Notes: a model not told the origin generated them from the sequence alone. Numbered from the stretch's first letter, positions 1,647 through 54,795 are shown. The stretch: 64,000 nt of DNA from Candidatus Latescibacterota bacterium (GCA_011772205.1 WVZY01000057.1:6190-70189), one strand, 5' to 3'. Numbers and translations are program-made.

Positions 1647-1651
1647 ACCGA

Positions 1652-6488: not shown

Positions 6489-6512
6489 CTTGATTCTGAT
6501 TTCTAAATCGCG

Positions 6513-7640: not shown

Positions 7641-7644
7641 GGAG

Positions 7645-11203: not shown

Positions 11204-14200
11204 CGGAGCACCCCTACTTTTCGTTTGAGGGTCGATTGTTGGCCACCCACAGCCCGAATCTCGAGGACGAGGTAATAAACTCCGTTGTTCACCACGTCTC
11301 CCTCGTCGTTTCGTCCATCCCATACGACATCCTGATGGAGCCCTGGATTCGAGAGTTTGTTGGACAGCAGCGTCTTAACCGGTGCTCCCCAAAGCGTGTA
11401 AAGCTCCAAAGTCACATAGGACTGATTGTCCAAGTAATAAGTGATCCTTGTTTCCTCTCTTCCAGCAGCAAATGGATTGGGATAATTGGTGAAGCCTTCT
11501 TTGTTGTCCGCACCGAGGATGTGCGCGGTCCCGCTCTTGAGTGGGTACCCCGTTCCACCGATCGTTCCAACCGACATCACCCCGCTCGTAGTTGCGTCTT
11601 CTACTGCAACGGAAGCGCTGTCCTCAATGACGAACCTGATATTCTCTCCGGCTGATTGTGTGCTAACATCCACATCGAAGAACAGCGTGTCGGTTGTGCC
11701 AGCGGTAACAACAATCAGTCCCGCTGGAATCGTGATCGATATCTCGCTATTGGTGATCTGACCGGTGGCGATCACGCTATCCTTGCTGGACAGATACGCG
11801 CCGGAAAGGAGTTGCGAAGGATCCAAAATTCGTCCCTTTATATTTTCGATTCTCACAGTGAGGGACCGGAATTCGATATCCGTTGAACCTTCCGGGTTAC
11901 CGTTTTGGATGAGGAGATCAAAAGCAGGAATCCCGGGTTGCACGGTGCTGATGTTACTCGGAAGTTTGGATTCCAGTCCGCAGAGGGCGAGGCTGCTCGG
12001 CAATCGTAACGCTCCGGGATTGGTGACGAGCGGGAAAGAGCCCGAGATCTCATAGATCCTGGAGCGGTCGTTCGAATCGAACAGCACAAGCTGATCTTTG
12101 TTGATCCGCATTTCGAATACTGCCGGCGTGTAAGAGCTTTTGGTATCCAGTACGATCTGCAGTGTCTCGGATGCCGCAGGGGCAACGGTGAGCGGAGGAT
12201 TGAGCGTGAGCTCGGCGATTGCGAAGCTGCTGCTCAGGGAGGAGTTGGTGGATAAAGTGTCGCCATTGTGCAGCAAACGCAGGTTGCTGAAATATCCTCC
12301 AGGGAAGAGCGGCGTTCCGCCAAGTTCTGAGAAGATGACGGCAATAGAGTCGAGCTCCACTGATGATGCCGATGAAGTATCTGAGTGGGTTAGGGCGATA
12401 TCCATTACGGGAATGGATTGCATCGACGGCAGGAGCGTCGGCGGGAGCGTGCTGAGATGTGAAACGGCCACTCCGGAAGCGGGAGTTTGGAATAACATCA
12501 TGGAGGATAACAACGGGAAGCCAGGAGAACCGCTTTTGGGAACTACCTTGATCAATTGGCCCGAGTTGAAGTCACGCGCTATGATGGCGAGTGGATCGTT
12601 CACGCTGAGATAGAAACCATCCGTCAGGGGAAATGCCTTCAGATCCACCAGGATATCGATATATTTTTCGCTCTGAGGCTGAAGAACGAGCGGGCTTCCT
12701 AAATTACACACAAGCTGGTTACCGGTTACCGGAATATCCTCGGTTGTATAAATGACTGAGCCCGACGTTGACAGGGATATCTTGCGTATGACTGCATTCG
12801 GGGGAATAGTTGCACCCGTTGTATCGTAAAAGCTCAGGGTTAGACGCGTCAGCAGCTCACTGGCTGATGTGAGATCACCACCGTTTAGCAACTCAAGCTG
12901 TAGTGGGGCGACGTTGTCCTGAGCAACGTTGGCGAAAACAGTGTCCGCTGCTGCGGCAGACACGAATAGTGTTTCGGCGGGTGCGTTGATATCGATATCG
13001 TTTGTTACCCATGGGAAAGACGCCTGCGAGGAAAGCGTGACGGCGGCGGAATCGTTCGAATCGATCACCCTGATATCATCGATTTGATCGATCCTGATTC
13101 TGAATGATGTGAATGCGGCACTATCTGAAAGCTGACAGAAAGCATCCAGAACGAGATCGTCCCAAGGTAAAACCGAGATGGACGGCTCGACATCCAATGT
13201 CACTGGATTCGTAGAAGAATCCACGAGCACGAACGTATGCTGGCCACTATTCGGATTTATGAGCGATAAGCTTTTGAGAATACTATTTGGTGGTAGAGGA
13301 GAAGCGGCACCATCTTCGAAGCTCAGAGTAAGTTTATCAAGCAAGGTGGTAGCGGAAAGGCTGTCGATAACGTCGTGTTTGCATTGAAGCTCGAACAGAT
13401 GCACGTTTTCCTGGCCGCGATTGGCACTGGTAGGGCTGAGATCGTTGAGAGCGATAAAAATATCGTGAGGTCTATTTTGGATTTGAGCGTCGTTCGAACA
13501 TGAAAATTCGGATATTTCCAAACTATCGCCGGTGAAAGCATTGCCGCAGAAGCTGATGTCGCCTGTGGATGCGGCCACATAGGTCCAAATGACCGTAGTA
13601 TCGGTTCCCGCTGGGAGATCGAATGAGCTGGCGGACGGACCGGTTTGGTAATTAACGACACCGGAGCCGGTTGTGCTTATGATCGAGGGTGAGATTTCTG
13701 ACAGAGGTGTTGCCCCCTCATTTCGAACCCTCATGGAAAGGACAATACTTTGACCCATGCTATAACTTGAGCGATCGGTATGGAGGGACGTGAGCAGGGG
13801 ATCTGTCGATATTGTTTGCTCGAACGGATTGACAATAGCAGCATCGATTGGACCGTCGTTTCCAGACGCCACCTGGATGCTATTAGTAGGGATTCTTGCC
13901 TGGAAAGTAGATTCGTCGGTAGCTACATTCGATACCGAGAACGTAACGTAGCATTTGAGACCCGATGACGGAATCGCCTCAGACAGTCCCGTAGGATTCT
14001 GCCAAGCGCTTCCATTCCAAACGAGGATGGAGAGGAATCGATCATCGGAAGAACTGAATCCCAAGGGATTCCCTCCGTCTTCCGCCCACAGCTTCAAAAT
14101 TATAATGTCCTGACCTGTCACCGCTGTCCCATTGTTCTGCACTGCGACAGACTTGAGGACATCAGTCAGCGTTCCGTTTGACGGAATAGTAAATGCAAGG

Positions 14201-17200
14201 GCAAGAACATCATCTTCGCCAAGGGCGGCGCGGTAAGGGGGAACCGGATCTGTGTTAATTTGCGCGGCAATCATCCCATCGGTGAAGTCCACACCGGGAG
14301 AATTGATCGGGAATTCACCTTGGATTTCGATCGAGCTGCTGGATAGGGTGATGTCAGCGCTTGAGTTTAGCTGAAGATTGAAGCTGACAGAATCCCTGAC
14401 TGCAAGGATCGCATCGTATGAGACGAACAGGTAGGTTATCCGTTTCGGACTCAGAGCCAGTCCGAGTGTATCGAGAGTGTAATAGTTGTTGTCGTGATGT
14501 CCAATTGCGAGGAGGCTGTCTGATGCAGGATCGAACAGTCCGTTCGAATCGATATCAGCAAAAGCATGAACCACCTCGATCTCACTGTTCACAACGGTTC
14601 CGGTCTGGAAAAGTTTGAGCGTCTCGACATTGAACGATGACGAATATCCGTTGTAAAAGCCTATACCAAAGTTGAGTTCATTCTTCGCGCCGGGATACAC
14701 GTATTTGTCACCTACGGAATAGGGGAATACCGTGAGCTCATTGGGCTTGGGTATCAATTGGATCGAGGGATTGATAACGGATGCATCGATAGGACCATCA
14801 TTTCCGGACGCCACCTCAATGCCTGAAGTAAGAATCTCGAACTGGATCGATGCACTGGTGGAGTACGTCGTATGGAGATCGGCCGCGGCGAAAAATCTCG
14901 TACGCTGCCCGCAAGGCATGGTGAGCGGTACGGCCATTGCTGGCATCAAATAAGTTTTGCTGCCCATATCAACAAAGTCGCCGAGGTAGCTGTCGTCACC
15001 CGAGCCTGTGTCGAATGTTCCATTGCCTCCATCGGCATACAAAGCCAGACGAGAGAAATGTTCCGAGTTCGCACTGCCCTGGTTGAAGATCTCGATGGAT
15101 TTCAACGTATCCAATTCGTAACCATTTGCCGGGATCGAGAAGTCGAGGACGAGAATATCGGTAATCTCAGTAACGATGAGACTGTCGGCAGTCGGAAAGA
15201 CTTTGATCTGATGAGCCAGCATGCCATTTATAACTAGCGGCTCCGGCGTTTCCAAGGGGAAGAACCCGACAATTGGCTTAGATGCGTCGAAATGCAGTGA
15301 TGAAGCGGATGGTATTTCTATTTTGAGCGTGTCGCCGTCACGTGCGCATGAGGAGTCGATGTCGCATGCAAAGAGTAGGTGGATGGTTTCACCGGCTGAG
15401 AGTGTCTTGGTGATGTTGCGAGCAACAAGAGATCCTCCCGAGAAAAGGAGGCTATCAGCCAGCAATTGATCCCATGCGTCTACGTTCCCATTGCCGTCGT
15501 CCGAATAGATCTTCAATCGCGCGATCTCTCCGTCCAGTTCGGCCGGTGCACCTGCGCCCGACGACATGTTCGACACGGACAACGAATCCAGCGTAAGGCT
15601 CTGCAGGGTGTTGTTATTGATGCTCGCCATTAAAATCGAAACATCCGCTGCACCAGGACGCGGCCAGCCGGCAGGGATCGGCTGGTTGGCAACTTCGATC
15701 TGTTCGATTCTTTTGATCGTATGAGTGGAATCTCCTGCTATTAGATAGTCGATGGGGCCGTCGTTTGCTGACATCACTCCAACGCCCTCGATGGGGATGG
15801 CCGGCCTGAAATGGTCTCCATCGTTTGCGTTGGTCGAGATGTCTGCAACGACGTAGAACTTGCGCGCAGCGCCCACAGGGATTTTGATCCCTGATATCTC
15901 GAAGCGGTCACCCGAGAAAACCATATTTCCAAGGGGGAGATCGACTCCAGGATCGAATACAGCATCCCCGTCATCCAGATAGAGCCGCAGCGCGCTGAAA
16001 TCTGCCGGAGAAAAATCTCCTGACACATCCATTACTGATAGTGCAGTGAGCGTATCCGCCTCATAACCGTTCTGCGGAAATGCAGCAGTGAGGAGCAGGT
16101 TGTCGGAAGCACCCGAACTAAGGGTGTCCAGGCTCGAAGGCGTCACAGAGATCTGATGCGAGACCATTCCGTCGATAACGAGGTACCCATAGGAGTTGAC
16201 GGGGTATAAAGGAGAAAAGTCCTCCAGTACATCGGTGCTATCCGTGAAAACGACATCGAAGGGAGATAGCAATATGGCATCCAGCTTGTCGCCGTCGCGG
16301 GCAAGAAAAGAGTCGATCGTCACTGCAACAAAGAGGTAGCTGGTATCCCCAGCAGGGATTGCCAATCCTCCGTTGATGGCGAAAGTAGTCCGCCCCGAAA
16401 CGAAGAAGGAAGTCGAAACGAGTGTGTCCGCTGCGGATAGCGTCCTGCTGGAATCCACATCATGATATAAAAAGAGCGAATCGAACTCGGCATCGAGTTC
16501 AAACTGCCCCCCTGGGCCGATAGTTGCATTCGTGACGATCAACGTGTCGAGGTAGCGGCTGCTTGAATATTGATTGTGGAATTCCAAAGCGAGAACCGCT
16601 TCATTGCTTGTTCCTGGATAAACGTCCTCCACGGATAGTGGAACCGCCTTGATGATGATCCTCGGGATATCGATATCGATGCTGTTCCGCCCGGCCGTTG
16701 ATATCGTATCGCTGTACGCTTTGCCATAGTCGTCCGTTCCGGCGAAGGTGATCGTGAGGTCGTATGTCGCGGGTGCAACAATTCCGGTTGGGACGGGAGA
16801 AGGGAGGAATGCGATGGTGAAATCATCCGCAGAAGGCGGTACATAAGTTGGATTCCCGAGCCTGGCCTGATATACTTTTGATCCATCCGTAAAGGAGATC
16901 GTCGAAGCGGTATCGAGCATCACGCCCACATTGGTCGAGTTGTCCATCCCGATGCGAAGCGCGAGCTGAGGATCCTCCACATTGGCTGTCGATGGGTACA
17001 GAGAATTGGGAGAATCTCTTAGAATCACGCGTTCTATCACGGTCACTTCGACGGAATCGCTGTTGTTGATAGTGTTCGGGTCTTCTTGATCAACGTTCGA
17101 GATCGAAGCGATGTTGGTGATCATGGAATCCACCGTTCCAGAATCGACGGTGGCCGTGATGATCAGCGTGGCGGTATCAGCGCCCGCGAGAACGCCCACG

Positions 17201-20200
17201 GTCCAGATCCCCGTGCCGCTAACATATGCCCCCTGGCTGGTTGTATCTGAATGGTATGTAACTCCCTGCGGAAGGAGATCCGTTACCTCGATTACTGCGG
17301 CGGTGTCCGGGCCATTGTTTATGAGCATGACGGTATAATTGAGAGAGTCGCCTTCATATGGCATCGTGACATCGGCTGATTTCACGATCTCGAGATCGGA
17401 GCTTTGAACGACGATATCGAACGACGCGATGTTGTTCGTCGTGTCTGGGTCGGCCTGATCGGCACCTAAGATTGTGGCGATATTTGTGATCGTTGAAGCA
17501 CCCGTTCCGGGATTGACAGTAGCGGTGAGCAGTAGAGTTGCGGAATCAGAGGAGGCCAGTGTGCCCACCGCCCAGACGCCCGTAGCACTCACATAGCTGC
17601 CCTGACTCGTTGTATCGGATTGGTACGTGATCCCAGCGGGCAAGAGGTCGGAAACTTCAATTCCCGTCGCAGTGTCCGGCCCCAGGCTGGCCAGCTTGAT
17701 GGTGTAAGTGAGCGTATCCCCAACACTTGGTGATGGGTTGTCGACGATCTTAGAGATTTCGAGATCCGCTCCTTGGACGGTGATGACTGTTGTGTCAATG
17801 TTGTTGATTGCATTCGTGTCAGGTTGATCGGAAGCTGTGATACCGGCAACATTGGTGATCATTGAACCGGCCGTTCCTGCATCGACGGTCCCATTGATTA
17901 CGAGTGTCGCGATTGCGGAATTCACGAGGGCGCCCACCGTCCAAAGCCCCGTACTGCTCGCGTACGTACCCTGGCTGGGGGCGTCGGCTAGATATGTCAC
18001 TCCCGCCGGTAGGAGGTCTGTTACTTCTACGCCCGTGGCATCGTCGGGTCCGTTGTTGGTTACTGTAATGGTGTAAGCGAGGGTGTCCCCTTCATTGGGT
18101 ATCGAGTCGTTCACCGCTTTTGCAATTGACAAATCCAGTGTTGCGGCATCGCGGAAGGCCACATAAAAATAAGCGTCGCCGTTTCTATTGACATCGTTGA
18201 GAGCTCCAATCTGGAAACCATCGGGCAGGAAGGTTTGAATGCCATCACTGAAAGCCGCACCGGGATCCATCGGCAGCGTATTGTCACCGGGTAGAGAAGA
18301 GGGTCGATGAACGGCCGGAGAGCCATTCGGACCACGCGTGAGGATCATATAACGGGGCTGCAGGCCAACTCCTGTAATATCTCGATTGTCCAACCCATTC
18401 CCCAGATACAGATTTTCGGCAATTCTGCCTGGTATTCTGTTCCATGCCACGCAGTGGTGGGCGATGCCTGTTTTATTGACCGTATTGTGACTGCCAATTT
18501 GGAATCCGGTTGGTTCGAAATTCTGTATCCTGTTGGTTCTTTCGTCGCTTGACTGGAAGGGTAGGCTTGCATCAAGCGGTTCGGAGGCAAACCGCTGCAT
18601 CGCATCTTCGCCATCCTCGCTCATTATGATCACATAAGCAGGGGAAAACCCGACGCTGCCGATGCTCCGGTTGTCCGTGCCGTTACCAACGTACGAATCC
18701 ACCACCATCTGCCCCGGAGCTGCGAGAAATGCGGTCCAGTAGTAGGTGACTCCTGGCGCGTTCACCTGTGCTCCCGAGCCAATCCTGAATCCATTCGGCA
18801 TAAAGGTGGTAATGAGATTGCTCAGCAACGCTGAGTTTGTCCCAAGCTCCTTGGAAACATCTCCGACCATCGTGGACGTCCTGGCCACCGCTGGTTCATC
18901 GTTGTCTCCTTTGATGATCACGAGATCTGGCCAAAACTGGAGGCCTGTTATCGGATGATTGTTGGATCCATCCCCCAGATAGCTGCCCGTGACTATCTGG
19001 AAGTCTTCATATTGAACAGAGATGTTGGCGGTGTCGAAGTTGTTGGCACTATTCGTATCTGCCTGATCAACGGCGATGAGTGTTGCCGTGTTGACAATGA
19101 TAGTCCCCAGCGTTCCCAAGTTCACGGTGGCGACAATATCCAACGTTGCGCTACCGCCGTTAGAGATAGCACCGACAATCCACCTGCCGGTAACGCTGCT
19201 GTAACCACCTTGGCTGGGAGTATCGGAGACATACGTAACTCCCGCCGGGAGCAGATCCAGGACTTCGACGCCTGTCGCATCGCCGGGGCCGTTATTTGTC
19301 AGTGTGACCGTGTAGGTGACGGTGTCCAATTCGCTGGGAACCGGATTATCGACGATCTTGGCGACCGCCAGGTCGAGGGCTGGTGCGGTGCGGAAAGCCA
19401 CCCAATAGAATTTTTCTCCATTATCATTGACGGCAACGTCCGAACCAATTTGGAACCCATCGGGCAAGAATGCCTGGATGCTGTTGCTAAGCGCGCTGTT
19501 CCCCGGAATAAGGAAACAAAAATCTCCTACGAGGGAGGCGGGACGATGAAAAGCCGCGTAATTGCTGCCGTCATGCTTGATTAGCATGTATTCGGGTTGA
19601 AAACCGACTCCGGTGATATCCCGGTCATCGGATCCATCTCCCGTGTAGTCATTGCCCGCTATTTTCCCCGGCGATACTTTCCAAGCCGCGTAATGGAAGG
19701 CGACCGACGATTGGTTGACATTTGGATGTGACCCAACCTGGAAGCCGCTGGGTTCGAATGCCTGGATCAAGTCGGGTTCTTCGGCGGCTGGAGTGAATTG
19801 TATGCTTCGATCGCCTGTCTGTGTGGGGAATCGCTGAATGGCCTGGCGTGGCGATTCACTCATTACGATTACGTAATCAGGTTGGAATCCGACGGTCGGG
19901 ATACTCCGATCGTCACTGCCATCACCAAGATAAGATCCGACTGCCAGCTCGTTCGGTGCTGCTTTGAACGCAATCCAGTAAAAGTCAATCCCCGGCTCGT
20001 TGACTTGGAAATCCGATCCAATCGTGAAGCCGTCGGGGTCCAGCGATTGAATTCTATTGCCCACTAGGCCTGTTCCGGCTCCGAGTGCTTTCGAAGTATC
20101 ACCCATCATGCTGGATGAGCGCGTGATAGTGGATTCGTTGTTATCTCCTTTGATGATAACGAGATCGGGCTTGAAGCCAATACCTGTTATAGGGGTGTTA

Positions 20201-20829
20201 TCTATGCCGGTTCCCGTATAGCTGCCCGTGTTCATCCGCATGCCGCTGCCGGCAGTGACAACCACCAGGCTGGGGCGCTGGCTTGGGAGCATCCATTCCC
20301 TGCTAAAATATTTGGACTCCGTATCGAATGACGTCGAGATGAACATCAGTCCTTCGTTGGAGTAAGTCCCCTCCACCCATTCACTCACGAGCGGTGTGAT
20401 GTCTACGGCTACTATCCCCGGTGAATTAGGAACAAAAGTCCCGTAGATAGTGGAATTGTCGTAGTCGTTGGCTGTATTGTTCCAGTTCACACCGCTTTCG
20501 GTCCAGCTGTCCGTAACGCGATAGATCGAAACGGGGCTGCCGCTGATATCCGGAGCAGATACATAGAAGAAGGCAACTGCGGTGGTGACAGTTTCACCGG
20601 CGGGAATTGGCGAGAGATCGTAACGGCAGACAACGCGGAAGCTGTCAGCGGGAGTGCTTTTATTGAATAATTCCAGGTCACTTCCGTGGTTTTCGAAAGG
20701 TGCCGCCTGCTTCAACCAGCTGTCCTGATCGAGATAGGCGGTATAAATGCCACCCTCCGCCCTCAATGGCAGCATTGTAAGAGCCGGGAAAATCAGCAGA
20801 AGCGCAATTTTTTTCGAATACATGCTCAC
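11200..20829 (-). CDS. Giant secreted surface protein (3209 aa): signal peptide, DNRLRE-like N-terminal domain, repeated about 95-aa beta modules, DUF11 repeats, long Ser/Thr-rich beta-rich region, T9SS-type C-terminal sorting domain
   Basis: Uninterrupted 9.6-kb ORF. N-terminal signal peptide. Six DUF11-like units (LTNNGPGDATGVEV..LLPAGVTY). C-terminal 85 aa match the Por_Secre_tail/FlgD-Ig-like CTD (NYPNPF...WDGRNDEGDVVNNGVYYLVL). Confidence 0.85.
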   Translation of the reverse strand: MSMYSKKIALLLIFPALTMLPLRAEGGIYTAYLDQDSWLKQAAPFENHGSDLELFNKSTPADSFRVVCRYDLSPIPAGETVTTAVAFFYVSAPDISGSPVSIYRVTDSWTESGVNWNNTANDYDNSTIYGTFVPNSPGIVAVDITPLVSEWVEGTYSNEGLMFISTSFDTESKYFSREWMLPSQRPSLVVVTAGSGMRMNTGSYTGTGIDNTPITGIGFKPDLVIIKGDNNESTITRSSSMMGDTSKALGAGTGLVGNRIQSLDPDGFTIGSDFQVNEPGIDFYWIAFKAAPNELAVGSYLGDGSDDRSIPTVGFQPDYVIVMSESPRQAIQRFPTQTGDRSIQFTPAAEEPDLIQAFEPSGFQVGSHPNVNQSSVAFHYAAWKVSPGKIAGNDYTGDGSDDRDITGVGFQPEYMLIKHDGSNYAAFHRPASLVGDFCFLIPGNSALSNSIQAFLPDGFQIGSDVAVNDNGEKFYWVAFRTAPALDLAVAKIVDNPVPSELDTVTYTVTLTNNGPGDATGVEVLDLLPAGVTYVSDTPSQGGYSSVTGRWIVGAISNGGSATLDIVATVNLGTLGTIIVNTATLIAVDQADTNSANNFDTANISVQYEDFQIVTGSYLGDGSNNHPITGLQFWPDLVIIKGDNDEPAVARTSTMVGDVSKELGTNSALLSNLITTFMPNGFRIGSGAQVNAPGVTYYWTAFLAAPGQMVVDSYVGNGTDNRSIGSVGFSPAYVIIMSEDGEDAMQRFASEPLDASLPFQSSDERTNRIQNFEPTGFQIGSHNTVNKTGIAHHCVAWNRIPGRIAENLYLGNGLDNRDITGVGLQPRYMILTRGPNGSPAVHRPSSLPGDNTLPMDPGAAFSDGIQTFLPDGFQIGALNDVNRNGDAYFYVAFRDAATLDLSIAKAVNDSIPNEGDTLAYTITVTNNGPDDATGVEVTDLLPAGVTYLADAPSQGTYASSTGLWTVGALVNSAIATLVINGTVDAGTAGSMITNVAGITASDQPDTNAINNIDTTVITVQGADLEISKIVDNPSPSVGDTLTYTIKLASLGPDTATGIEVSDLLPAGITYQSDTTSQGSYVSATGVWAVGTLASSDSATLLLTATVNPGTGASTITNIATILGADQADPDTTNNIASFDIVVQSSDLEIVKSADVTMPYEGDSLNYTVMLINNGPDTAAVIEVTDLLPQGVTYHSDTTSQGAYVSGTGIWTVGVLAGADTATLIITATVDSGTVDSMITNIASISNVDQEDPNTINNSDSVEVTVIERVILRDSPNSLYPSTANVEDPQLALRIGMDNSTNVGVMLDTASTISFTDGSKVYQARLGNPTYVPPSADDFTIAFLPSPVPTGIVAPATYDLTITFAGTDDYGKAYSDTISTAGRNSIDIDIPRIIIKAVPLSVEDVYPGTSNEAVLALEFHNQYSSSRYLDTLIVTNATIGPGGQFELDAEFDSLFLYHDVDSSRTLSAADTLVSTSFFVSGRTTFAINGGLAIPAGDTSYLFVAVTIDSFLARDGDKLDAILLSPFDVVFTDSTDVLEDFSPLYPVNSYGYLVIDGMVSHQISVTPSSLDTLSSGASDNLLLTAAFPQNGYEADTLTALSVMDVSGDFSPADFSALRLYLDDGDAVFDPGVDLPLGNMVFSGDRFEISGIKIPVGAARKFYVVADISTNANDGDHFRPAIPIEGVGVMSANDGPIDYLIAGDSTHTIKRIEQIEVANQPIPAGWPRPGAADVSILMASINNNTLQSLTLDSLSVSNMSSGAGAPAELDGEIARLKIYSDDGNGNVDAWDQLLADSLLFSGGSLVARNITKTLSAGETIHLLFACDIDSSCARDGDTLKIEIPSASSLHFDASKPIVGFFPLETPEPLVINGMLAHQIKVFPTADSLIVTEITDILVLDFSIPANGYELDTLKSIEIFNQGSANSEHFSRLALYADGGNGTFDTGSGDDSYLGDFVDMGSKTYLMPAMAVPLTMPCGQRTRFFAAADLHTTYSTSASIQFEILTSGIEVASGNDGPIDASVINPSIQLIPKPNELTVFPYSVGDKYVYPGAKNELNFGIGFYNGYSSSFNVETLKLFQTGTVVNSEIEVVHAFADIDSNGLFDPASDSLLAIGHHDNNYYTLDTLGLALSPKRITYLFVSYDAILAVRDSVSFNLQLNSSADITLSSSSIEIQGEFPINSPGVDFTDGMIAAQINTDPVPPYRAALGEDDVLALAFTIPSNGTLTDVLKSVAVQNNGTAVTGQDIIILKLWAEDGGNPLGFSSSDDRFLSILVWNGSAWQNPTGLSEAIPSSGLKCYVTFSVSNVATDESTFQARIPTNSIQVASGNDGPIDAAIVNPFEQTISTDPLLTSLHTDRSSYSMGQSIVLSMRVRNEGATPLSEISPSIISTTGSGVVNYQTGPSASSFDLPAGTDTTVIWTYVAASTGDISFCGNAFTGDSLEISEFSCSNDAQIQNRPHDIFIALNDLSPTSANRGQENVHLFELQCKHDVIDSLSATTLLDKLTLSFEDGAASPLPPNSILKSLSLINPNSGQHTFVLVDSSTNPVTLDVEPSISVLPWDDLVLDAFCQLSDSAAFTSFRIRIDQIDDIRVIDSNDSAAVTLSSQASFPWVTNDIDINAPAETLFVSAAAADTVFANVAQDNVAPLQLELLNGGDLTSASELLTRLTLSFYDTTGATIPPNAVIRKISLSTSGSVIYTTEDIPVTGNQLVCNLGSPLVLQPQSEKYIDILVDLKAFPLTDGFYLSVNDPLAIIARDFNSGQLIKVVPKSGSPGFPLLSSMMLFQTPASGVAVSHLSTLPPTLLPSMQSIPVMDIALTHSDTSSASSVELDSIAVIFSELGGTPLFPGGYFSNLRLLHNGDTLSTNSSLSSSFAIAELTLNPPLTVAPAASETLQIVLDTKSSYTPAVFEMRINKDQLVLFDSNDRSRIYEISGSFPLVTNPGALRLPSSLALCGLESKLPSNISTVQPGIPAFDLLIQNGNPEGSTDIEFRSLTVRIENIKGRILDPSQLLSGAYLSSKDSVIATGQITNSEISITIPAGLIVVTAGTTDTLFFDVDVSTQSAGENIRFVIEDSASVAVEDATTSGVMSVGTIGGTGYPLKSGTAHILGADNKEGFTNYPNPFAAGREETRITYYLDNQSYVTLELYTLWGAPVKTLLSNKLSNPGLHQDVVWDGRNDEGDVVNNGVYYLVLEIRAVGGQQSTLKRKVGVLR
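11203..11460 (-). other. Region encoding the T9SS-type C-terminal sorting domain (CTD) of the giant protein
   Basis: Last roughly 85 residues: GFTNYPNPFAAGREETRITYYL...GVYYLVLEI. Confidence 0.6.
17035..18138 (-). repeat. Four tandem DUF11 (conserved repeat domain) coding repeats inside the giant gene (aa about 898-1265)
   Basis: Divergent but clearly homologous protein repeats of roughly 120 aa: LxxxNNGPD.ATGxEVxDLLPxGxTYxSDxxSQGxY. Confidence 0.7.
19390..20223 (-). repeat. Triplet of roughly 95-aa beta-repeats (GSYxGDGSDDRxIxGxGFxPD...FxIGSxxxVNxxGxxYxxxAF), set 1. A second triplet lies at about 18145-18991, separated from set 1 by a DUF11 unit at about 19012-19380.
   Basis: Seen in the translated giant ORF, aa about 203-480 and 613-895. 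Confidence 0.55.
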
Positions 20830-37852: not shown

Positions 37853-38938
37853 TTGGCAAATGAGTATGCGCATTTCCGGCGGCCCGGTACCTTTAAACGT
37901 CAGCCAGAGGAAAACACTGTGAGAAAGTCGCTGCTTGTTACTCTCGTCGCCTGCATGGCAGCCTTACTGATTAGCATCGCATGTGCCGAGAAATCTCCAG
38001 CAGAGGAACCGGTTGCGAATAAGTCTTCCGGCATGGAATCCTCCTCGGAGAATTCGCCTGCACAGGATTACGAATCGGAGCTGTCGTCCGAGAAGGCGTA
38101 CGAGAGGGTTATGAGGGAAATCAGAGATATCGAAAAAAGCCCGCTCGCCAAGCGAGAACCGATCAAAGCAATCGAGAAGATCGAAGGAAAGTTCCGGGCG
38201 TTTATAGAGGAATATCCGGGATCAAAAGAATCGCATGATGCGATGTTCCAGCTTGGAGTGCTTTACAACCACCTCCAAAAACCTGAGAAAGCGATACTGC
38301 ATTTGGAAAAATATCTGTCTTCAGCCTCCGATGCTGATGAGAACAAAGTAGCCTTTGCTCATTATTCTATCGCAGAGGCATACAAGAACGCCGGTAACTT
38401 CGATGCAGCGAAAAAGCATTATCGGATCGTCGTAGATCGGTATGCGAGTGTAAACACTCAGCTCTTGGGAATGGCTCGCACGAATCTCGAGGACATGGAT
38501 GTCATTCAAAGGCTTGCCATAGGGAAAGAACCGATTCCCTTTGAGGTGACGGACCTCAATGGGTCCTCCCTGTCTTTAGAGAAGTACAAGGGCAAGGTGG
38601 TTCTGCTAGATTTTTGGGCAACCTGGTGCGCACCGTGTTTGCAGGAAATGCCGAATGTAAAGCGGATCTATAAGCAGTATCATCAGCAAGGCTTTGAGAT
38701 AATAGGGATTTCGCTCGATAGCAACCGTAATGCTCTGGAGAAATACGTAAGGAGGAACGATATCAAGTGGCCGCAGCACTTCGATGGAAAAGCCTGGAAC
38801 AATGAAGTCGCAAAGAAGTACAAGGTGCGGTCAATCCCGGCAACATTCCTCCTGGATCGAAGCGGGAAGATTCGCTATAAATCCGTGAGAGGTTCTCGGC
38901 TTGCCCAGGCTGTTGAGAAGCTAGTGAAAGAAAAATAG
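37853..38938 (+). CDS. TPR-containing TlpA/ResA-like thiol-disulfide oxidoreductase (thioredoxin fold, WCAPC active site), membrane-anchored or secreted
   Basis: C-terminal VVLLDFWATWCAPCLQEMP redoxin motif. N-terminal hydrophobic anchor. Likely start is GTG 37919 (RBS AGAGGAAAA) rather than ATG 37853. Confidence 0.75.
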   Translation: MANEYAHFRRPGTFKRQPEENTVRKSLLVTLVACMAALLISIACAEKSPAEEPVANKSSGMESSSENSPAQDYESELSSEKAYERVMREIRDIEKSPLAKREPIKAIEKIEGKFRAFIEEYPGSKESHDAMFQLGVLYNHLQKPEKAILHLEKYLSSASDADENKVAFAHYSIAEAYKNAGNFDAAKKHYRIVVDRYASVNTQLLGMARTNLEDMDVIQRLAIGKEPIPFEVTDLNGSSLSLEKYKGKVVLLDFWATWCAPCLQEMPNVKRIYKQYHQQGFEIIGISLDSNRNALEKYVRRNDIKWPQHFDGKAWNNEVAKKYKVRSIPATFLLDRSGKIRYKSVRGSRLAQAVEKLVKEK

Positions 38939-41260: not shown

Positions 41261-43114
41261 CTAAATGGCCTCGGCTTTCAAACTGTGGAGGCGCGAGAGA
41301 AACTCTTTCGCATCTACAAAACCGACGACGCGAAGATCTTCTCTCTCATTTCCGTCCTGGTCGACGAAGATCACAGTGGGGACACCGCGTATCCGGAATA
41401 TTTTCCTCAGTCGCACGTTCGCTTCGGAGCCTGCTTGAGTCAAATCGGCCTTCAATCTGACGAACTCCTCCGTCGCTTTGACCACATCGTCTTGCGAAAA
41501 GGTCTTATGGTCGAGTTCTTTACAAGGGATGCACCAGTCCGCGGAGAAGTCGATTAGGACAAAGCGGCCTTCCACCTTGGCTTTGGCCAGCATGTCATCG
41601 CTGTACGGCTCCCACTTGATTCCTATTTCCTCGGCCGTTCCGAATAAGATAGTAGATGAGAAGATGATGTATAATCCCAGGATCGGGCCGATGATGCCTA
41701 TGGCACGTCGAAGCGCGCGGAAAAAAGGCGCTGTACTTTCTGATCTGACCACGAATCCAAGAACGATTCCACAGGCGATGATAACAAGCCCTAACACGAG
41801 CGCGTACAGCCAGCTTGCCATGATCGGCTTCAGGAAATACACGGCCATTGCAAGAAGTATCCCGCCGAACAACTTTCTCACCCACTCCATCCATTCGCCG
41901 GATTTTGGCAGCTTCGAGATGCTTCCGGATATCACGGCGAGGACAACGAAAGGCAAACCGAGGCCGACGGCAAGAGTAAAGAACAGGGAAAATCCGAGAG
42001 CCGGGTTGCCGCTCTCGCCGACGAATGTGAGAAGACCCAGGACGAATGGACCGATGCAGGGTGCTGCGACGATTCCAACGGTAAGGCCCATGAAAAAAGC
42101 TCCCATCGCGCCCTGCTTCGATGTTCCGGCAACATTGCTTAATTTTGCAGGAATACGGATCTCATAAAAGCCGAACATCGACAGGGCCAATCCGACGAGC
42201 ACGAGGGCGACGAAAGCGAGCACATATGGGTTTTGGAGCGCTGAGCCGAACAGACTTCCCGTCAACGATGCGATCAGCCCCAACGAGGAATACATGATAG
42301 CCATGCCGAGCAGATACAGTATTGCGAGAAAAACCGTTCTCGAGCTCTTTCCTCTGCTCTGTCCTCCGAAGTAGCTCACAGTTATTGGAATCATCGGATA
42401 CACGCAGGGAGTGAGATTGAGCGCCATACCGGCGATGAAAACGGTGAGAAAAGCGAGTAGCAAACCTTTCGTTGCGATCAAGCGGCTCAGCGTGCCCTCG
42501 CGTATGCCTGCTCCATCGTCGGATGTGGTAGGGGGGGATGTGAGGCCGAAATTTATTTTGGAAAATATTTCCGTGTGGATCGCGTCGATCGCCTCCGTTG
42601 GGGGAGATACCCTGAACGGAATCACAAGCGGTTCATTCACCGGTGCAATGCACTTCTCGTTGTCGCATGCTTGGTAGGTGAGTGTGGCCACAACCGTGGT
42701 ATCCCCCAGAGGGAAATCTTTTGCCACCCCAATAAGAACGCCTACAAACACTTCACCTTCGTATAGGGCCAGCGGTTTGTCCGAAAACGAAAGGCGCTTT
42801 TCGGTCGCATTCGGATAGATGATCTTCCGGACGTCTATTCCGGGAGCGGTTTCAAGAGATATCGATGTGGGAATCAGGTATTCGTCGTTCACCTCATGGG
42901 CGTTGATGTGCCAGTGACCGCCGATGCGGACTGCCACGGCGACAGGTATGGTACCTCCTTGCGAAACGCTGCTAAAACCGGTGTAGGCGCGCAGGGTAAC
43001 CGGGTCCTCGATATAATCGAGGTTGAATTCGCTCGATCTTGCGATCGACACAAGTGCAAGCATAGCTACGAAGACCCCGAGCACCCAATAGATGAATCGC
43101 ATTCGTGACAGCAT
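41261..43114 (-). CDS. dsbD: Thiol:disulfide interchange protein DsbD (alpha domain, cytochrome c biogenesis TM core, C-terminal thioredoxin)
   Basis: N-terminal Cys pair (CDNEKC), TM-core cysteines (CVYPMIP, APCIGPF), C-terminal WCIPC thioredoxin motif. Confidence 0.85.
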   Translation of the reverse strand: MLSRMRFIYWVLGVFVAMLALVSIARSSEFNLDYIEDPVTLRAYTGFSSVSQGGTIPVAVAVRIGGHWHINAHEVNDEYLIPTSISLETAPGIDVRKIIYPNATEKRLSFSDKPLALYEGEVFVGVLIGVAKDFPLGDTTVVATLTYQACDNEKCIAPVNEPLVIPFRVSPPTEAIDAIHTEIFSKINFGLTSPPTTSDDGAGIREGTLSRLIATKGLLLAFLTVFIAGMALNLTPCVYPMIPITVSYFGGQSRGKSSRTVFLAILYLLGMAIMYSSLGLIASLTGSLFGSALQNPYVLAFVALVLVGLALSMFGFYEIRIPAKLSNVAGTSKQGAMGAFFMGLTVGIVAAPCIGPFVLGLLTFVGESGNPALGFSLFFTLAVGLGLPFVVLAVISGSISKLPKSGEWMEWVRKLFGGILLAMAVYFLKPIMASWLYALVLGLVIIACGIVLGFVVRSESTAPFFRALRRAIGIIGPILGLYIIFSSTILFGTAEEIGIKWEPYSDDMLAKAKVEGRFVLIDFSADWCIPCKELDHKTFSQDDVVKATEEFVRLKADLTQAGSEANVRLRKIFRIRGVPTVIFVDQDGNEREDLRVVGFVDAKEFLSRLHSLKAEAI

Positions 43115-50474: not shown

Positions 50475-50775
50475 ATGGACATGGTGAGAATGTATTCAGG
50501 AATTTGGAATGAGGGCGATAGATCTGAAGACTCAACGGCTACCAGGGAGTCTCAAATCGCGATGAAGAATTTTGCTATGTTCCTAATCCTTGCTTTGTTT
50601 TGCGCGTTTGTGTTTTTTGCATCGCTTTTCGGGTTCGCACACGCGAGTGGTGGCTTGGATTCGAATGAGGCAATCCTGGACTGCCACGAAGACTACGACG
50701 CTCTGCTATAGTTGCCATACACTATCTGAGTCACATGTTGTGTTCTTCGAATCCAACATTTCGGACTTCTTATGA
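50475..50775 (+). pseudogene. Remnant of a multihaem c-type cytochrome gene (signal peptide plus first CxxCH, then frameshift)
   Basis: ORF 50475..50711 is a signal peptide plus LDCHEDYDALL (paralogous to LDCHEEYDRSL of the downstream decahaem). CYSCH continues in the +1 frame (ORF 50590..50775). Confidence 0.45.
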
Positions 50776-50862
50776 CGACTTGTCTTGAATAAACCTTGAC
50801 AGTGTGGAGCTGGATGCTAAAATGCTTGAGGGTGCCAACGACCCAGCGTACGGGAGGTGATA

Positions 50863-51801
50863 ATGCGATTCACTAACCAGCTTTTCACAATGTCTTTCTT
50901 CGTTTCCCTTCTCCTTGTTATCCTCCTCACTTTTCCAGCATCGATGGTGGCGCAAGAGGCCGTTGTGGATGATGAAACGTGCCTGGACTGCCATGAGGAA
51001 TACGACCGATCGCTCGCTTCGAGTTCCCATAGGCTGGTGGCGCAAACAGACACCCGAACTGTTCAAATCCGCTGTGTTAGTTGTCACCGGGGAGCAGAAC
51101 TCCACGTTGAAGATCCTTCCACTGAGAACATTGGGAATCCCGCGAGTCTTATCGGATTTGATGTGATCGAGATTTGTTCGCAATGTCACTCGGCCCACTC
51201 CGAGCTCGACAACTACGGTTTCGATGCACATACGGTGGAGCAGTTGAACTGCTCGGAGTGCCACAAGGTTCATACTTTTGGCACGGTTCCCCTTCTCGAT
51301 GAGAGGGCGGAGTTCTGTTTCGGGTGTCATCAGGAAAAGAGAGCCAACTTCCTCAAAAACTCTAACCATCCGGTACTCCAACAGAACGTCACGTGCTTGA
51401 GCTGCCATCAATTTACAAAACGGCAGGATCAAAATCTCGCCTATGAATTGTCGAGCCATTGCCGCGATTGTCATCCTGAGCAGGGGGGACCGTTTCTCTT
51501 CGAGCACGAGGCAGTCAATGCTTATTCGGTCGAGGGGAGCGGGTGCATCGAATGCCATGATCCTCATGGAAGCGAAAATAACCGACTGATGAGGCAGCCC
51601 GGGAATCAGCTTTGTCGACAATGTCATTTCCCTGCGGGTCACACGGCGGCACATGGCGGGATCTGGGCTGCTTACGACTGTCAGATTTGCCACACGGAAA
51701 CACACGGCTCCTTCGTAAGTAACCTGTATCTCGATCCGAATTTGCCCGCCAAACTGGGCGGCAGCTGTTACAACCCTGGCTGTCATAGCCTAAATAGGTA
51801 G
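50863..51801 (+). CDS. Periplasmic decahaem c-type cytochrome (MtrA/PioA/MtoA-like)
   Basis: Ten CxxCH motifs in about 310 aa. Signal peptide. ATG 50863 with RBS GGGAGG. Confidence 0.8.
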   Translation: MRFTNQLFTMSFFVSLLLVILLTFPASMVAQEAVVDDETCLDCHEEYDRSLASSSHRLVAQTDTRTVQIRCVSCHRGAELHVEDPSTENIGNPASLIGFDVIEICSQCHSAHSELDNYGFDAHTVEQLNCSECHKVHTFGTVPLLDERAEFCFGCHQEKRANFLKNSNHPVLQQNVTCLSCHQFTKRQDQNLAYELSSHCRDCHPEQGGPFLFEHEAVNAYSVEGSGCIECHDPHGSENNRLMRQPGNQLCRQCHFPAGHTAAHGGIWAAYDCQICHTETHGSFVSNLYLDPNLPAKLGGSCYNPGCHSLNR

Positions 51802-51812
51802 CGAGGTTCACA

Positions 51813-53375
51813 ATGAGATGCCATAGGCGTGCAATGCTGGGTCTCTTGTTTGGAATATTCGTATGCTCGGCGAATGGGGCGGTATCGAAAGAAGGGACCG
51901 GCAGGTTCGAGTTGGGCTACGTTTATACGGACGAGGAAGGCAACCTCGCAGTCAACCAGGAGACCCACAACCTGTATGACGGATTGACAATCTCGCTCCG
52001 AGATGCCCGTTATTCGCTGGATAACGGGATTAATATAGGGGCGAATTTGAGGTACATCTCCCTGGACAATAGGAACATCGATTTCTCCGCCTCCAAAGCT
52101 CAGCTTTTTTCTCTCTCGTTCCATCACGATCAATATCGGCGAATTTACGAATCCGGAGGAAGAGGGTCCACCGATCGGAAATCAACAGGAGGGCAAGTGT
52201 CCGTTTCTCCTGTGAAGTATGTCACACTCTTCGGAGGGTATAGCTGGACAGATAAGGGAGGGACCAATTTGTTCTTGTTCCAACCTATCTCCGATCCGGT
52301 GGTTTTTACCAGCGACTATACCCATCGATTTTTCAACATCGGAGGGCAAGGATTCTTCAAGGGCAGGAGTGTTCGATTGGAGTATCGACAATCTGATTTT
52401 GATGATGAGGCAAAAGGTCACGGCGATCGCAAAGGACAAATGTTCAGAACCAGCGCTTCGACTCCGTTTCCCAGATACGAGCGTGTGGTACTGGCAGGAG
52501 GGTATGATTACCGACTTGATGAAATGGAGGGAAGTAGCGTTGAGCTGGAAACGAACCAGGCATGGGGCGCTACGAAAGCTAGGCTGCCCGGACAGATTAC
52601 CGTCGATTACCGGTTTGTTTTCGCACGCACCGACCATAAAGGCAACGGGATCGAAACGGATAACTTTCTGAACACGGTCTCGGTGGGAAGACGTTGGAAC
52701 CGACATGGAGGGTTTCGCGTTGGATACGAAAACCGTATCGTCGACGATCTCATCGATCGGAGCGAGTCCAATGGATTTTTGTTCAGTGGTTGGATCAATT
52801 ACCTCGACAAGCTTTTTGTAAGAACTTCGACGGCGACGCGGGATAAGAATATCGTCACGGGATCGACGCTGATTGGGGATGAAGATTTCACCCGCTATCG
52901 GGTCGCAGCCAGATATGTAGATGAGCGGTTTGGGGAGTTATCCGCACAGGTGCGAGCGCGTGTCAAAGAAAACGATGATATCGGGAGTGAAGCAGAATAC
53001 ACATCCTTCTCAACCGGCTTCAAGCTCTCCAGGCAAAAATACGGTCGGCTATCCATTTTTTACACATACTATGTTGGAGAATACGAGAGCCGTTCCGCGG
53101 ACTTCGAGTTGTCCGACCATGTGGTCAGGGGAAAGATCACGCCTGTGAAGTATCGGAAAGTAAGCGTCACCGCAGGAGGAACGTATTACCGGAGCCGAAG
53201 GGACCTAGATGTTGAAAAATCCAGTTTGAATTTGGGCATTTCCTATGAACTCCCGGAAGATTTTCACGTGGAGGCGAAGTATTCGGTGTTCAACTACGAC
53301 GACTTCCAGGCGATCGATTTGTTCTATACGGGAAATGTTGTGGAGGTGAGTATCGCAAGAGATTTTTCCATATAA
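51813..53375 (+). CDS. Outer-membrane beta-barrel porin partner of the decahaem cytochrome (MtrB/PioB-like by position)
   Basis: Signal peptide. About 500 aa of alternating amphipathic beta-strands rich in Y/R/D/G. Sits between two multihaem cytochrome genes. No detectable primary-sequence signature, so the call is contextual. Confidence 0.5.
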   Translation: MRCHRRAMLGLLFGIFVCSANGAVSKEGTGRFELGYVYTDEEGNLAVNQETHNLYDGLTISLRDARYSLDNGINIGANLRYISLDNRNIDFSASKAQLFSLSFHHDQYRRIYESGGRGSTDRKSTGGQVSVSPVKYVTLFGGYSWTDKGGTNLFLFQPISDPVVFTSDYTHRFFNIGGQGFFKGRSVRLEYRQSDFDDEAKGHGDRKGQMFRTSASTPFPRYERVVLAGGYDYRLDEMEGSSVELETNQAWGATKARLPGQITVDYRFVFARTDHKGNGIETDNFLNTVSVGRRWNRHGGFRVGYENRIVDDLIDRSESNGFLFSGWINYLDKLFVRTSTATRDKNIVTGSTLIGDEDFTRYRVAARYVDERFGELSAQVRARVKENDDIGSEAEYTSFSTGFKLSRQKYGRLSIFYTYYVGEYESRSADFELSDHVVRGKITPVKYRKVSVTAGGTYYRSRRDLDVEKSSLNLGISYELPEDFHVEAKYSVFNYDDFQAIDLFYTGNVVEVSIARDFSI

Positions 53376-53594
53376 AGATCGGTATGGGGCGCGGATTACC
53401 ACGAATATGTGGCAACGGGAATTGAGAAAGGCTCACTAAGAGCATAATGCGGGGATAGTAAACCAATACGTTTGACCCCCGGTTGGCAAACAAGAAGAGA
53501 AAACGGTAGCAGAACTTGGCCTTAGAGCAACGCCAAAGCCTCTTGCCATCCTTGCGTGTGAGGCGAATTGTTGCAAAGAAGGAGGTGCGTTTCT

Positions 53595-54713
53595 ATGAAA
53601 ACTGCAGCCCGAGTATTTTTGCTGGGGCTGTTGGCACCGCTAGTCGCTATGGGCTGCGAGCGAAAAGTGACCAATGAGGTGACCGAGATCGTTTCCCCGG
53701 ATGTATCTTTTTATGTGGGGAGCGACGCCTGCCAGGCATGCCATCCCAGCTTGCATGCGAGCTTCATGAAAACCGGGCATCCCTTCAAGTTGAACGACGC
53801 AGACGACGTTCAGGATCCCAACTACTATCCCTTCTCCACGGTTCAGAATCCGCCGGATCTGGCTTGGAGCGAAATCGATCTCGTCATCGGTGGATTCTGG
53901 TGGAAGGCACGATATATCAGGGCAGATGGGAGGATATATACGGGGCCAAACCGGCAGTATAACCTGCGGCCTGATAATCTCGCGCCTCCGGAATTCGTCA
54001 AGTACGAAACGGATACCCCAGGGACAAAAGACTACGATTGCGGTCGCTGCCATACAACCGGCTACAAGGCGCAGGGGAACCAGGATGGGAAACCCGGCCT
54101 GATCGGCACCTGGGCGTCAAACGGGATCCAGTGTGAAGCATGCCATGGTCCCGGAGGAGTTCATGCGAACTCTCCCTATGACGTCCGCATGGTTATTGAC
54201 AGGTCAAACGAGCTGTGCGGCAAGTGCCATGTTCGCGGCGCGGTTAACACGATCCCAGCGCAAGGCGGCTTTATTCGTCATCACGAGCAGTGGAACGAGA
54301 TGTTCACGACGAAGCATAGCGGGATCCAATGCGTCACTTGCCACGATCCGCATATAGGGCTACACCCGAGTAATCCAGATCGGGATATGGCGATCAGGCT
54401 CCAGTGCGAAAACTGCCACATGAAAGAGACGAAGAGTTTCGAGAATTCCTCGATCCTTCATTACGATGCGGGCATAACCTGCGAGGACTGCCACATGCCG
54501 AAAGCGAGCAAATCGGCCGTAGCGATCGGAACGTACGAAGCGGATGTCGCCACACATCTGTGGCGGATCAATACGGACGCGAATGCCGAAATGTTCACTC
54601 CCGACGGGAAGTTCGCAAACGGGTACCTAACACTCAATTTTGCCTGCAGTAGGTGTCATCCAGCAAAGACATTGGGTGAGCTTTCCTCCGACGCAGCGAA
54701 CGTGCACGAGTAG
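53595..54713 (+). CDS. Octahaem c-type cytochrome lipoprotein (outer-surface partner, MtrC/OmcA-analogue by context)
   Basis: Eight CxxCH motifs. Lipoprotein signal LAPLVAMGC. ATG 53595 with RBS GGAGGTG (ORF 53568 extension unlikely). Confidence 0.8.
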   Translation: MKTAARVFLLGLLAPLVAMGCERKVTNEVTEIVSPDVSFYVGSDACQACHPSLHASFMKTGHPFKLNDADDVQDPNYYPFSTVQNPPDLAWSEIDLVIGGFWWKARYIRADGRIYTGPNRQYNLRPDNLAPPEFVKYETDTPGTKDYDCGRCHTTGYKAQGNQDGKPGLIGTWASNGIQCEACHGPGGVHANSPYDVRMVIDRSNELCGKCHVRGAVNTIPAQGGFIRHHEQWNEMFTTKHSGIQCVTCHDPHIGLHPSNPDRDMAIRLQCENCHMKETKSFENSSILHYDAGITCEDCHMPKASKSAVAIGTYEADVATHLWRINTDANAEMFTPDGKFANGYLTLNFACSRCHPAKTLGELSSDAANVHE

Positions 54714-54756: not shown

Positions 54757-54795
54757 AGAAAGCCCCTTTCCTGTGGGAAAGGGGCTTTATTTTAA
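54757..54795 (+). terminator. Rho-independent terminator of the cytochrome operon
   Basis: AAAGCCCCTTTCC-TGTG-GGAAAGGGGCTTT stem-loop followed by ATTTTAA, 44 nt after the stop. Confidence 0.7.

Follow-up and report, generated by a model that had tools for sequence, protein, structure and literature searches.

A predicted MtrAB-type electron conduit with a compact outer-membrane barrel and an OcwA-like octahaem partner in a Latescibacterota bacterium

A three-gene locus for a probable conduit

A 64,000-nucleotide stretch of DNA from a Candidatus Latescibacterota bacterium (GCA_011772205.1 WVZY01000057.1:6190-70189), referred to throughout as the window, carries three genes that probably (at a rough probability of 0.78) encode an MtrAB-type conduit for carrying electrons across the outer membrane, in which a decahaem wire, CytA, held in a beta-barrel would pass electrons to an OcwA-like octahaem cytochrome at the cell surface, CytC, and thence to extracellular acceptors. 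A preliminary description of the locus had proposed MtrAB/porin-cytochrome logic and this is borne out, in that CytA is homologous to MtrA, the model of the barrel is closest to MtrB and the solved relatives of CytC are surface terminal reductases. The genes are co-directional, with gaps of 11 nt and 219 nt between them, and the 10-haem cytochrome, the 520-aa barrel with a signal peptide and the 8-haem lipoprotein were all recovered where the preliminary description had placed them:

50863..51801, + strand: cytA, MtrA-like periplasmic decahaem c-type cytochrome (312 aa from the ATG; 10 CxxCH)
51766..51786, + strand: C-terminal C-x4-C-H element of CytA (CYNPGCH), which may bind an 11th haem or form a disulfide/His element
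51813..53375, + strand: compact 26-strand outer-membrane beta-barrel with a predicted MtrB fold (520 aa; AlphaFold2 and Foldseek)
53595..54713, + strand: cytC, OcwA-like octahaem lipoprotein cytochrome (372 aa; GenBank GTO51_08465)
53655..53681, + strand: lipidated Cys and tether, C-E-R-K-V-T-N-E-V, at the N-terminus of mature CytC, conserved in partner cytochromes

When CxxCH motifs were counted in the open reading frames (ORFs) of the 64-kb window, at least two were found in cytA and cytC alone, and the clustering of these two genes is therefore not a product of chance.

The decahaem cytochrome CytA

Judged by its sequence, CytA is clearly a homologue of MtrA. It has a Sec signal peptide, 10 CxxCH motifs, a C-terminal CxxxxCH and no lipobox. 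Its best match in the PDB is 6r2q_A (E 6.7e-24), a chain that we take to be MtrA, the deposited label being misleading; residues 40-264 of CytA align with 65-289 of that chain and the haem motifs are in register. Against TIGR03508, the DmsE/MtrA family, it scores 153.3 bits with model positions 3-256 of 258 aligned, and its best NCBIfam match is to the GSU2203 decahaem family (NF041028), with 160.8 bits against a cutoff of 325. All 10 CxxCH motifs and at least nine additional His are kept across 48 CytA orthologues, a pattern consistent with bis-His haems. The C-terminal C..C-H is kept in 46-48 of the same 48 proteins with variable spacing (CX4CH, CX2CH or CX1CH), the variants observed being CYNPGCH, CFNCH, CWCH and CYCH. 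Since the C-terminus of MtrA is the outward-facing end (PMC7198977), this C-x(1-4)-C-H would sit at the extracellular tip of CytA, where it is a candidate for an 11th haem or else for a disulfide/His element.

The compact barrel

The preliminary description held that the barrel is shorter than MtrB and has no recognisable MtrB motifs and, as far as hidden Markov models (HMMs) are concerned, this is true of the window protein: a Pfam scan gave no match, PF11854 included, a scan of NCBIfam/TIGRFAM gave a match at noise level only and none to TIGR03509, and a sequence search of the PDB, with either the single sequence or a 34-sequence profile, returned nothing even at E <= 10. The predicted fold is nonetheless MtrB-like. 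The AlphaFold2 model built from the family alignment has 26 strands (mean predicted local distance difference test score, pLDDT, 86.7; predicted template-modelling score, pTM, 0.76) and when it was compared with the PDB using Foldseek the top match was MtrB (6r2q_B; E 8.3e-17, template-modelling score, TM, 0.72), which leads the other solved fold matches by seven orders of magnitude in E value. The next matches, TonB-dependent receptors and LptD, range from E 1.6e-09 (TM 0.48) upward, and every non-MtrB barrel among the matches listed has a TM of 0.52 or less. The preliminary description had allowed for a generic porin unrelated to the sheathing of cytochromes; the barrel is not of that kind, and MtrB proved a far better match than the other solved barrels.

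MtrB is a 26-strand sheath around MtrA, and its surface loops (~45 A) narrow the outer aperture and trap MtrA (PMC7198977). Loop lengths in the model of the window barrel alternate, 12 tight turns adding up to 37 residues and 13 longer loops to 88 (maximum 18), and the 13 odd-numbered loops would form the extracellular side. As modelled, the shortness of the barrel lies in trimmed extracellular loops, so that it is a loop-trimmed MtrB fold and not a different architecture. The suggestion that this may be a distinct conduit type is thus upheld in one respect, since the barrel belongs to a discrete, compact MtrB-fold clade with an outer partner other than MtrC, but not in the other, the architecture being the familiar one.

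The family to which the barrel belongs was represented by 35 clusters in a word-indexed search and by 175 in an exhaustive HMM scan of 1.84 billion representatives, in which all full-length members were 504-557 aa and canonical-length MtrB/PioB was not reached among the 150 matches listed. Five of 34 family members match PF11854 (MtrB_PioB) over the N-terminal third and in register, two of them above the gathering cutoff (33 and 31 bits against 23); one of the 34 matches TIGR03509, and some members give weak matches to the generic OMP_b-brl. The window protein has a signal peptide that contains both of its only two Cys, leaving the mature protein Cys-free. An N-terminal CXXC is a signature of MtrB from metal-reducing gammaproteobacteria, and it is absent from the window barrel.

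Relatives and synteny

A scan of 185,579 species genomes for the barrel yielded 47 that encode it, all of them metagenome-assembled genomes (MAGs) from the Fibrobacterota-Chlorobiota-Bacteroidota (FCB) superphylum and assigned to Zixibacteria, Ignavibacteria/-ales, Latescibacterota, Calditrichota, Chitinivibrionia and GN15. The pairing of decahaem and barrel genes is invariant over these 47 genomes and several phyla, with a spacing of 0-15 nt, and in every locus with enough contig the gene directly 5' of the barrel encodes 306-373 aa with 10-11 CxxCH. The gene 3' of the barrel varies. In the majority of loci it encodes ~340-390 aa with 5-6 haems. The window and the loci closest to it have an 8-haem version of ~380-393 aa, others one of 685-734 aa with 12-16 haems, and in a few loci the gene is absent or truncated. 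The 16-haem partner is a tandem duplication of the window octahaem (in locus L011 the two halves are 55% and 53% identical to CytC), and the 5-haem partner is unrelated to the octahaem except at its N-terminus. Tandem-duplicated partners with 12-16 haems occur in L009-L011, L013, L015, L021, L025, L027, L039 and L047, and in each a single N-terminal tether is kept.

A homologous triad is also present in Eisenbacteria, where hhalign gives 99.8% for the barrel and the decahaem shows 36% identity, the C-terminal CX4CH included. This locus (L053, CP070702.1, 3400-7122) consists of the decahaem, a 536-aa barrel and an octahaem bearing a variant tether, G-C-E-K-T-T-K-V, and has Fer4 and NrfD genes ~2 kb upstream of the triad.

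Of 48 loci, 17 have additional multihaem ORFs on the flanks of the triad. NrfD/Fe-S modules lie directly upstream of it in L004 and L053, and L004 adds a CbcL-like gene. The regions 1-6800 and 11222-13922 of L004 form a dense island of extracellular electron transfer (EET) genes that has no counterpart in the window. Directly 5' of the conduit this island has the CbcL-like gene (cytochrome b with multihaem c), a module of 4Fe-4S and NrfD, and a multihaem cytochrome of 930 aa, and on the opposite strand a true pair of the GSU2203/GSU2204 family adjoins the conduit. In another Latescibacterota genome (L001/L006, CP070677.1; ~8700-9400 in L006) the third gene is truncated to 221 aa with one CxxCH, the lipobox and a CERKT tether being kept; it abuts DnaB-like and helicase genes and a mobile-element insertion is possible. 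The same genome carries a 261-aa partial octahaem homologue, JSW58_13470, at another site.

The octahaem lipoprotein CytC

CytC has a lipobox (...LVAMG-C) and eight CxxCH motifs, and these account for every one of its Cys. A phmmer search of the PDB matched it best to OcwA of Thermincola potens (6i5b; E 2.9e-17), and its AlphaFold2 model (pLDDT 91.4) matched OcwA best in Foldseek (E 3.7e-13, TM 0.58), followed by MccA and then OmhA. OcwA belongs to the NrfA superfamily and acts as a terminal reductase at the cell surface; two of its haems have open coordination under HH motifs, and it also reduces nitrite and hydroxylamine (PMC6703420). CytC retains a conserved HH pair (H229/H230) and has only seven conserved non-motif His for eight haems, for which reasons an open-site haem is possible in CytC as well.

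Two other identities were considered for CytC and rejected. The preliminary description had raised the prospect that the cytochromes might resolve as enzymes of the NrfA or HAO type; neither of them does. A CxxCK is missing from CytC, as is any spare Cys from which the CX15CH of MccA could be formed, and CytC scores 17.3 bits against the 24.1-bit cutoff of PF02335 (Cytochrom_C552). It is likewise not MtrC or OmcA, which are four-domain proteins with 10 haems, since it has 8 haems and fails to match PF22113; its significant Foldseek matches (E <= 0.001) are OcwA, MccA and OmhA, and MtrC/OmcA is absent from them.

A search for the octahaem family with CytC gave 1,239 matches. The homologous domain is found behind the CERKVTNE tether, a CEKTT variant, collagen-like repeats, PGF-CTERM or plain signal peptides, and some homologues have acidic C[ST]DDE lipoprotein leaders that resemble the surface-export signal (LES) of Bacteroidetes. 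An extracytoplasmic or surface role for the octahaem module is supported by this occurrence of one domain behind varied extracytoplasmic anchors, and the module appears to have been reused across very different cell envelopes. Such envelopes are represented by the octahaem homologues of L054 (6001-7203) and L055 (6001-7275). One homologue has an archaeal PGF-CTERM surface anchor in a context with HVO-type regulators, and a copy from Anaerolineae carries collagen-like repeats at its N-terminus and adjoins cytochrome b and two large multihaem cytochromes.

A tether shared by the outer cytochromes

The mature N-terminus G-C-E-R-K-[VI]-[TV]-[NE]-E is present in 40 of 41 barrel-adjacent cytochromes, whatever their haem class. 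Among 65 lipoprotein-like ORFs in the loci it was found in 43 (42 intact and one truncated), all of them barrel partners, and in none of the 22 others, so that it cannot be regarded as a generic lipoprotein feature. In the monomer model of CytC the tether is of low confidence and likely to be disordered. The Bacteroidetes LES is C-x-K-(D/E)2 or S-D-D-D-D, net negative and directly after the lipidated Cys (PMC5080379). The tether is not a canonical signal of this kind, C-E-R-K-V-T-N-E being net neutral with no (D/E)2 run.

The tether and the C-x(n)-CH tip of the decahaem are the distinctive features of the clade, and together they may offset the missing MtrB loops by positioning or retaining the partners. 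A broader proposal, which we offer tentatively and with the odds somewhat against it, is that the FCB conduit is a plug-and-play device, in which a fixed core, made up of the decahaem with its additional C-terminal C-x(n)-CH and of the loop-less 26-strand barrel, would accept interchangeable, non-homologous surface cytochromes sharing the lipid-Cys-E-R-K-V-T-N-E adaptor, the latter docking into the barrel or onto it (e.g. as an added beta-strand) and taking over from the MtrB loops the tasks of holding the wire and placing the outer partner. If this were true the adaptor would amount to a new targeting peptide that could be transferred to other proteins to attach them to an electron conduit of the outer membrane. 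The tether also provides a testable handle for the engineering of modular conduits.

Mechanism, direction of electron flow and rival explanations

In the proposed mechanism CytA would be exported by Sec and would sit inside the predicted 26-strand barrel, which would insulate it from lipid, with its C-terminal end outward. The quinone pool would be the source of the electrons, which would reach CytA through a quinol dehydrogenase of the inner membrane and carriers in the periplasm, with genes in another part of the genome. At the outer tip of CytA, haem 10, to which the C-x(n)-CH element may form an extension, would hand them over to CytC, which its lipid anchor and the N-terminal tether CERKVTNE would keep at the barrel. 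The acceptors reduced by CytC would include Fe(III)/Mn(IV) minerals, humic substances and electrodes, and perhaps certain soluble compounds as well. The analysis shows that CytA is homologous to MtrA, that the predicted fold of the barrel is like that of MtrB, that CytC resembles OcwA in sequence and predicted fold, and that synteny is conserved. From this we infer that CytA threads the barrel, for which the strict adjacency of the two genes in 47 genomes speaks indirectly, that CytC is exposed at the surface, what the tether does and in which direction electrons flow.

Flow is probably outward, to minerals, humics or electrodes, because almost every locus has a dedicated surface cytochrome, because the solved relatives of that cytochrome are terminal reductases and because relatives of the conduit adjoin quinol-oxidising modules. 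A dedicated outer cytochrome is a feature of reductive MtrCAB, and the described Fe(II)-oxidising PioAB and MtoAB operons list none (PMC10654088; PMC6831781). The same hardware might instead run inward in the manner of MtoAB/PioAB, so that the periplasm would receive electrons from Fe(II) outside the cell, from reduced minerals or cathodes, or from a syntrophic partner. The lack in the window barrel of the N-terminal CXXC of metal-reducing gammaproteobacterial MtrB counts in favour of this. MtrA and MtrB homologues do serve Fe(II) oxidation in Sideroxydans and Rhodopseudomonas (PMC10654088; PMC6831781), reverse operation of the Mtr pathway has been studied (PMC3032769), and Zixibacteria with mtrAB were labelled possible iron oxidisers in one study (PMC9769843). 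We nevertheless consider inward flow unlikely, given that the described PioAB/MtoAB operons list no dedicated surface multihaem partner, of the kind that this clade nearly always has, that terminal reductases are the solved relatives of CytC, that HiPIP (high-potential iron-sulfur protein), Cyc2 and cbb3-type genes are absent from the vicinity of the window conduit and that the NrfD/CbcL-like modules adjacent to relatives fit the oxidation of quinol.

A different arrangement of the same proteins would make CytC an outer-membrane lipoprotein that faces the periplasm, either as a collector of electrons feeding CytA or as an octahaem reductase of a soluble substrate (nitrite, hydroxylamine or sulfite-like), with CytA itself contacting the outside. 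The fold of CytC is nearly as close to that of MccA, a periplasmic sulfite reductase, as to that of OcwA, the open-coordination haems of OcwA go together with an ability to reduce nitrite and hydroxylamine, the seven conserved non-motif His for eight haems are accompanied by an HH pair like the distal-pocket motifs of OcwA, and the tether is unlike the experimentally defined surface-export signal of Bacteroidetes. To set against this, CytC lacks CxxCK and the spare Cys that an MccA-type CX15CH would need and is half the size of MccA, its homologues bear unambiguously extracellular anchors, and the partner slot is filled elsewhere by unrelated 5-haem or duplicated 16-haem proteins, which fits interchangeable outlets better than a specific enzyme; the arrangement is accordingly judged improbable. 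It is scarcely credible that the locus is a coincidental juxtaposition of a generic porin or transporter barrel with two unrelated periplasmic electron carriers. The window barrel has no direct family match and some members of its family weakly match OMP_b-brl, but the decahaem and barrel genes are adjacent in all 47 genomes and several phyla at 0-15 nt, MtrB is the top fold match, 26 strands are far more than a diffusion porin possesses, and the barrel family is tight, constant in length and adjoins cytochromes in every locus examined.

The interpretation of the locus as an outward-directed MtrAB-type conduit has several points to contend with. The window barrel matches neither PF11854 nor TIGR03509, and the 153.3 bits of CytA against TIGR03508 are below the curated cutoff of 192.2. 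The modelled barrel is without long capping loops of the MtrB type, which leaves the retention of CytA unexplained, and the 219-nt gap before cytC leaves co-transcription unproven. The 64-kb window was searched for a quinol dehydrogenase and for further cytochromes and none was found; the inner-membrane quinol dehydrogenase that the preliminary description had named as a gene to look for is therefore not within the window. All of the relatives are from uncultured MAGs, and the direction of electron flow is not readable from sequence.

Gene starts, transcription signals and annotation

The signals around the three genes are as follows:

50796..50823, + strand: sigma-70-like promoter candidate, TTGACA-16 nt-TAAAAT, TG-extended (11/12 match; ~40 nt 5' of cytA)
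53376..53594, + strand: spacer of 219 nt between the barrel gene and cytC (terminator/promoter scan without match)
54759..54793, + strand: intrinsic-terminator-like hairpin with a perfect 13-bp stem and the loop TGTG, followed by ATTTT

The ATG of cytA at 50863 has a GGAGG Shine-Dalgarno 5 nt 5' of it, and an alternative in-frame GTG at 50857 overlaps that Shine-Dalgarno, for which reasons the ATG is the better start; the product is 312-314 aa depending on the choice. Gene calls by NCBI and Logan start the barrel at M8, giving 513 aa. The ATG of cytC at 53595 is preceded by AAGGAGG, and its product is identical to GTO51_08465 of a Candidatus Latescibacteria MAG. The promoter candidate was identified by its match to the sigma-70 consensus only, which may not be the usage of Latescibacteria. 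The preliminary description had spoken of a terminated unit, and the 13-bp hairpin and T-run downstream of cytC agree with this; the hairpin has a free energy of -25.3 kcal/mol (z -5.2) and none of 200 shuffled sequences was equally stable. A scan of the + strand of the spacer found no terminator or promoter match. The gap at this position is ~6-15 nt in nearly all relatives, as against the 219 nt of the window.

A 338-aa ORF runs antisense to cytA (50770-51786, - strand) and overlaps it fully. It has no family match and lies over a gene with strong homology; it is almost certainly a shadow ORF and its public call an annotation error. At least one public gene call, for the Logan assembly ERR2564001_816, annotates this ORF in place of cytA, and automated annotation can thus conceal the decahaem cytochrome behind an antisense call.

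The wider neighbourhood

The neighbours of the conduit encode an amino-acid permease/Usp fusion, a PD40/Tricorn-like lipoprotein, a His phosphatase, a rhomboid protein, a DUF2064 protein, pyruvate:ferredoxin oxidoreductase (PFOR) and dihydroorotate dehydrogenase (DHODH). At 8-13 kb upstream there are a lipoprotein with TPR and a thioredoxin/AhpC-TSA fold (37853-38938, + strand) and a DsbD-type thiol:disulfide transporter (41261-43114, - strand). Thioredoxin-fold and DsbD-type proteins supply reductant for the maturation of c-type cytochromes, and one may speculate that this pair does so for the conduit. Further away, a giant ORF of 3,209 aa (11200-20829, - strand) combines several DUF11 repeats with DUF7483 and a carbohydrate-binding module, CBM96, and probably encodes a very large adhesin of the cell surface or a protein that binds glycans, and a partner-switching-type cluster (5046-9210, - strand) comprises a HAMP-SpoIIE (PP2C) phosphatase, a fusion of HATPase_c_2 and STAS, and a HisKA/HATPase histidine kinase.

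Implications

These results would extend MtrAB-type conduits with (predicted) structural support to Latescibacterota and to the wider FCB superphylum. Such organisms are abundant uncultured bacteria of sediment and groundwater, usually seen as fermenters or polymer degraders, and they now become candidates for mineral, humic or electrode respiration. If the model is correct, the sheath of a conduit can be reduced to a bare 26-strand cylinder. The outer partner may be an OcwA-type module common to Gram-positives, Chloroflexi and archaea, which would link envelope types that have been treated as separate solutions to EET. The general-purpose Pfam and NCBIfam/TIGRFAM models of MtrB miss the window barrel and a survey that requires MtrC excludes the clade by design, so that conduits of this type may be under-counted.

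Comparison with known systems

The conduit is only partly new. FeGenie-based work reported mtrAB in Zixibacteria MAGs, including Dive96 and Dive100 (PMC9769843), both of which are also among the loci of the present analysis, and an 'MtrB-like PCC' was noted in one Ignavibacteria genome (PMC7399161); the presence of mtrAB in MAGs of these two groups was thus already known. In the open-access full-text literature no description was found of the compact loop-less barrel clade or of its OcwA-type partner, nor of partner swapping, the shared tether or the extra C-terminal motif of the decahaem. A systematic survey of MtrCAB, in which MtrC was required, found the system in three phyla and none in FCB (PMC8805035); the host of the window, an FCB-superphylum bacterium, lies outside all three.

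With MtrCAB of Shewanella (6R2Q) and its MtrAB core, MtoAB and PioAB the locus has in common the adjacent decahaem and barrel genes. The decahaem is homologous to MtrA and both are periplasmic proteins of ~310-330 aa, but the window protein has the extra conserved C-terminal C-x(1-4)-CH. The barrel is ~130-180 aa shorter than MtrB, with very short extracellular loops as modelled and a Cys-free mature protein. As in MtrCAB, the third partner is a lipoprotein multihaem cytochrome, but it differs from MtrC/OmcA in having 8 haems and an OcwA/MccA-like predicted fold, and the gene order is A-B-C in the window as against C-A-B in MtrCAB.

CytC is similar to OcwA (6I5B) in sequence and predicted fold and keeps a CHMPK-type motif and the HH pair. 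It has 8 haems against 9, is ~110-150 aa shorter, and the long C-terminal helical bundle of OcwA is not evident in its model. Whilst OcwA resides on a Gram-positive wall, CytC would be lipid-anchored and coupled to an outer-membrane barrel. Further fold relatives are OmhA (6QVM), an S-layer undecahaem cytochrome that, like OcwA, belongs to the cell surface of Gram-positives, and MccA (4RKM), which is twice the size of CytC.

The GSU2203/GSU2204 system (NF041028/NF041027) resembles the window in having side-by-side genes for a decahaem and a large partner of ~580 aa. Membership was rejected, the window scoring 160.8 against a cutoff of 325 and 13.9 against a cutoff of 350, where the true members in L004 score 308 and 461; since this genuine pair coexists with a compact-barrel triad in L004, GSU2203/2204 is a separate paralogous system. 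The porin-cytochrome complexes of Geobacter (OmaB/OmbB/OmcB and ExtABCD) follow the same logic of periplasmic cytochrome, porin and outer lipoprotein cytochrome, and earlier work reported them from Ignavibacteria. No homology signal to them was seen, and the window differs from them in that its periplasmic cytochrome is of the MtrA type, with 10 haems and not 8 or 12, and its barrel is predicted to have the MtrB fold.

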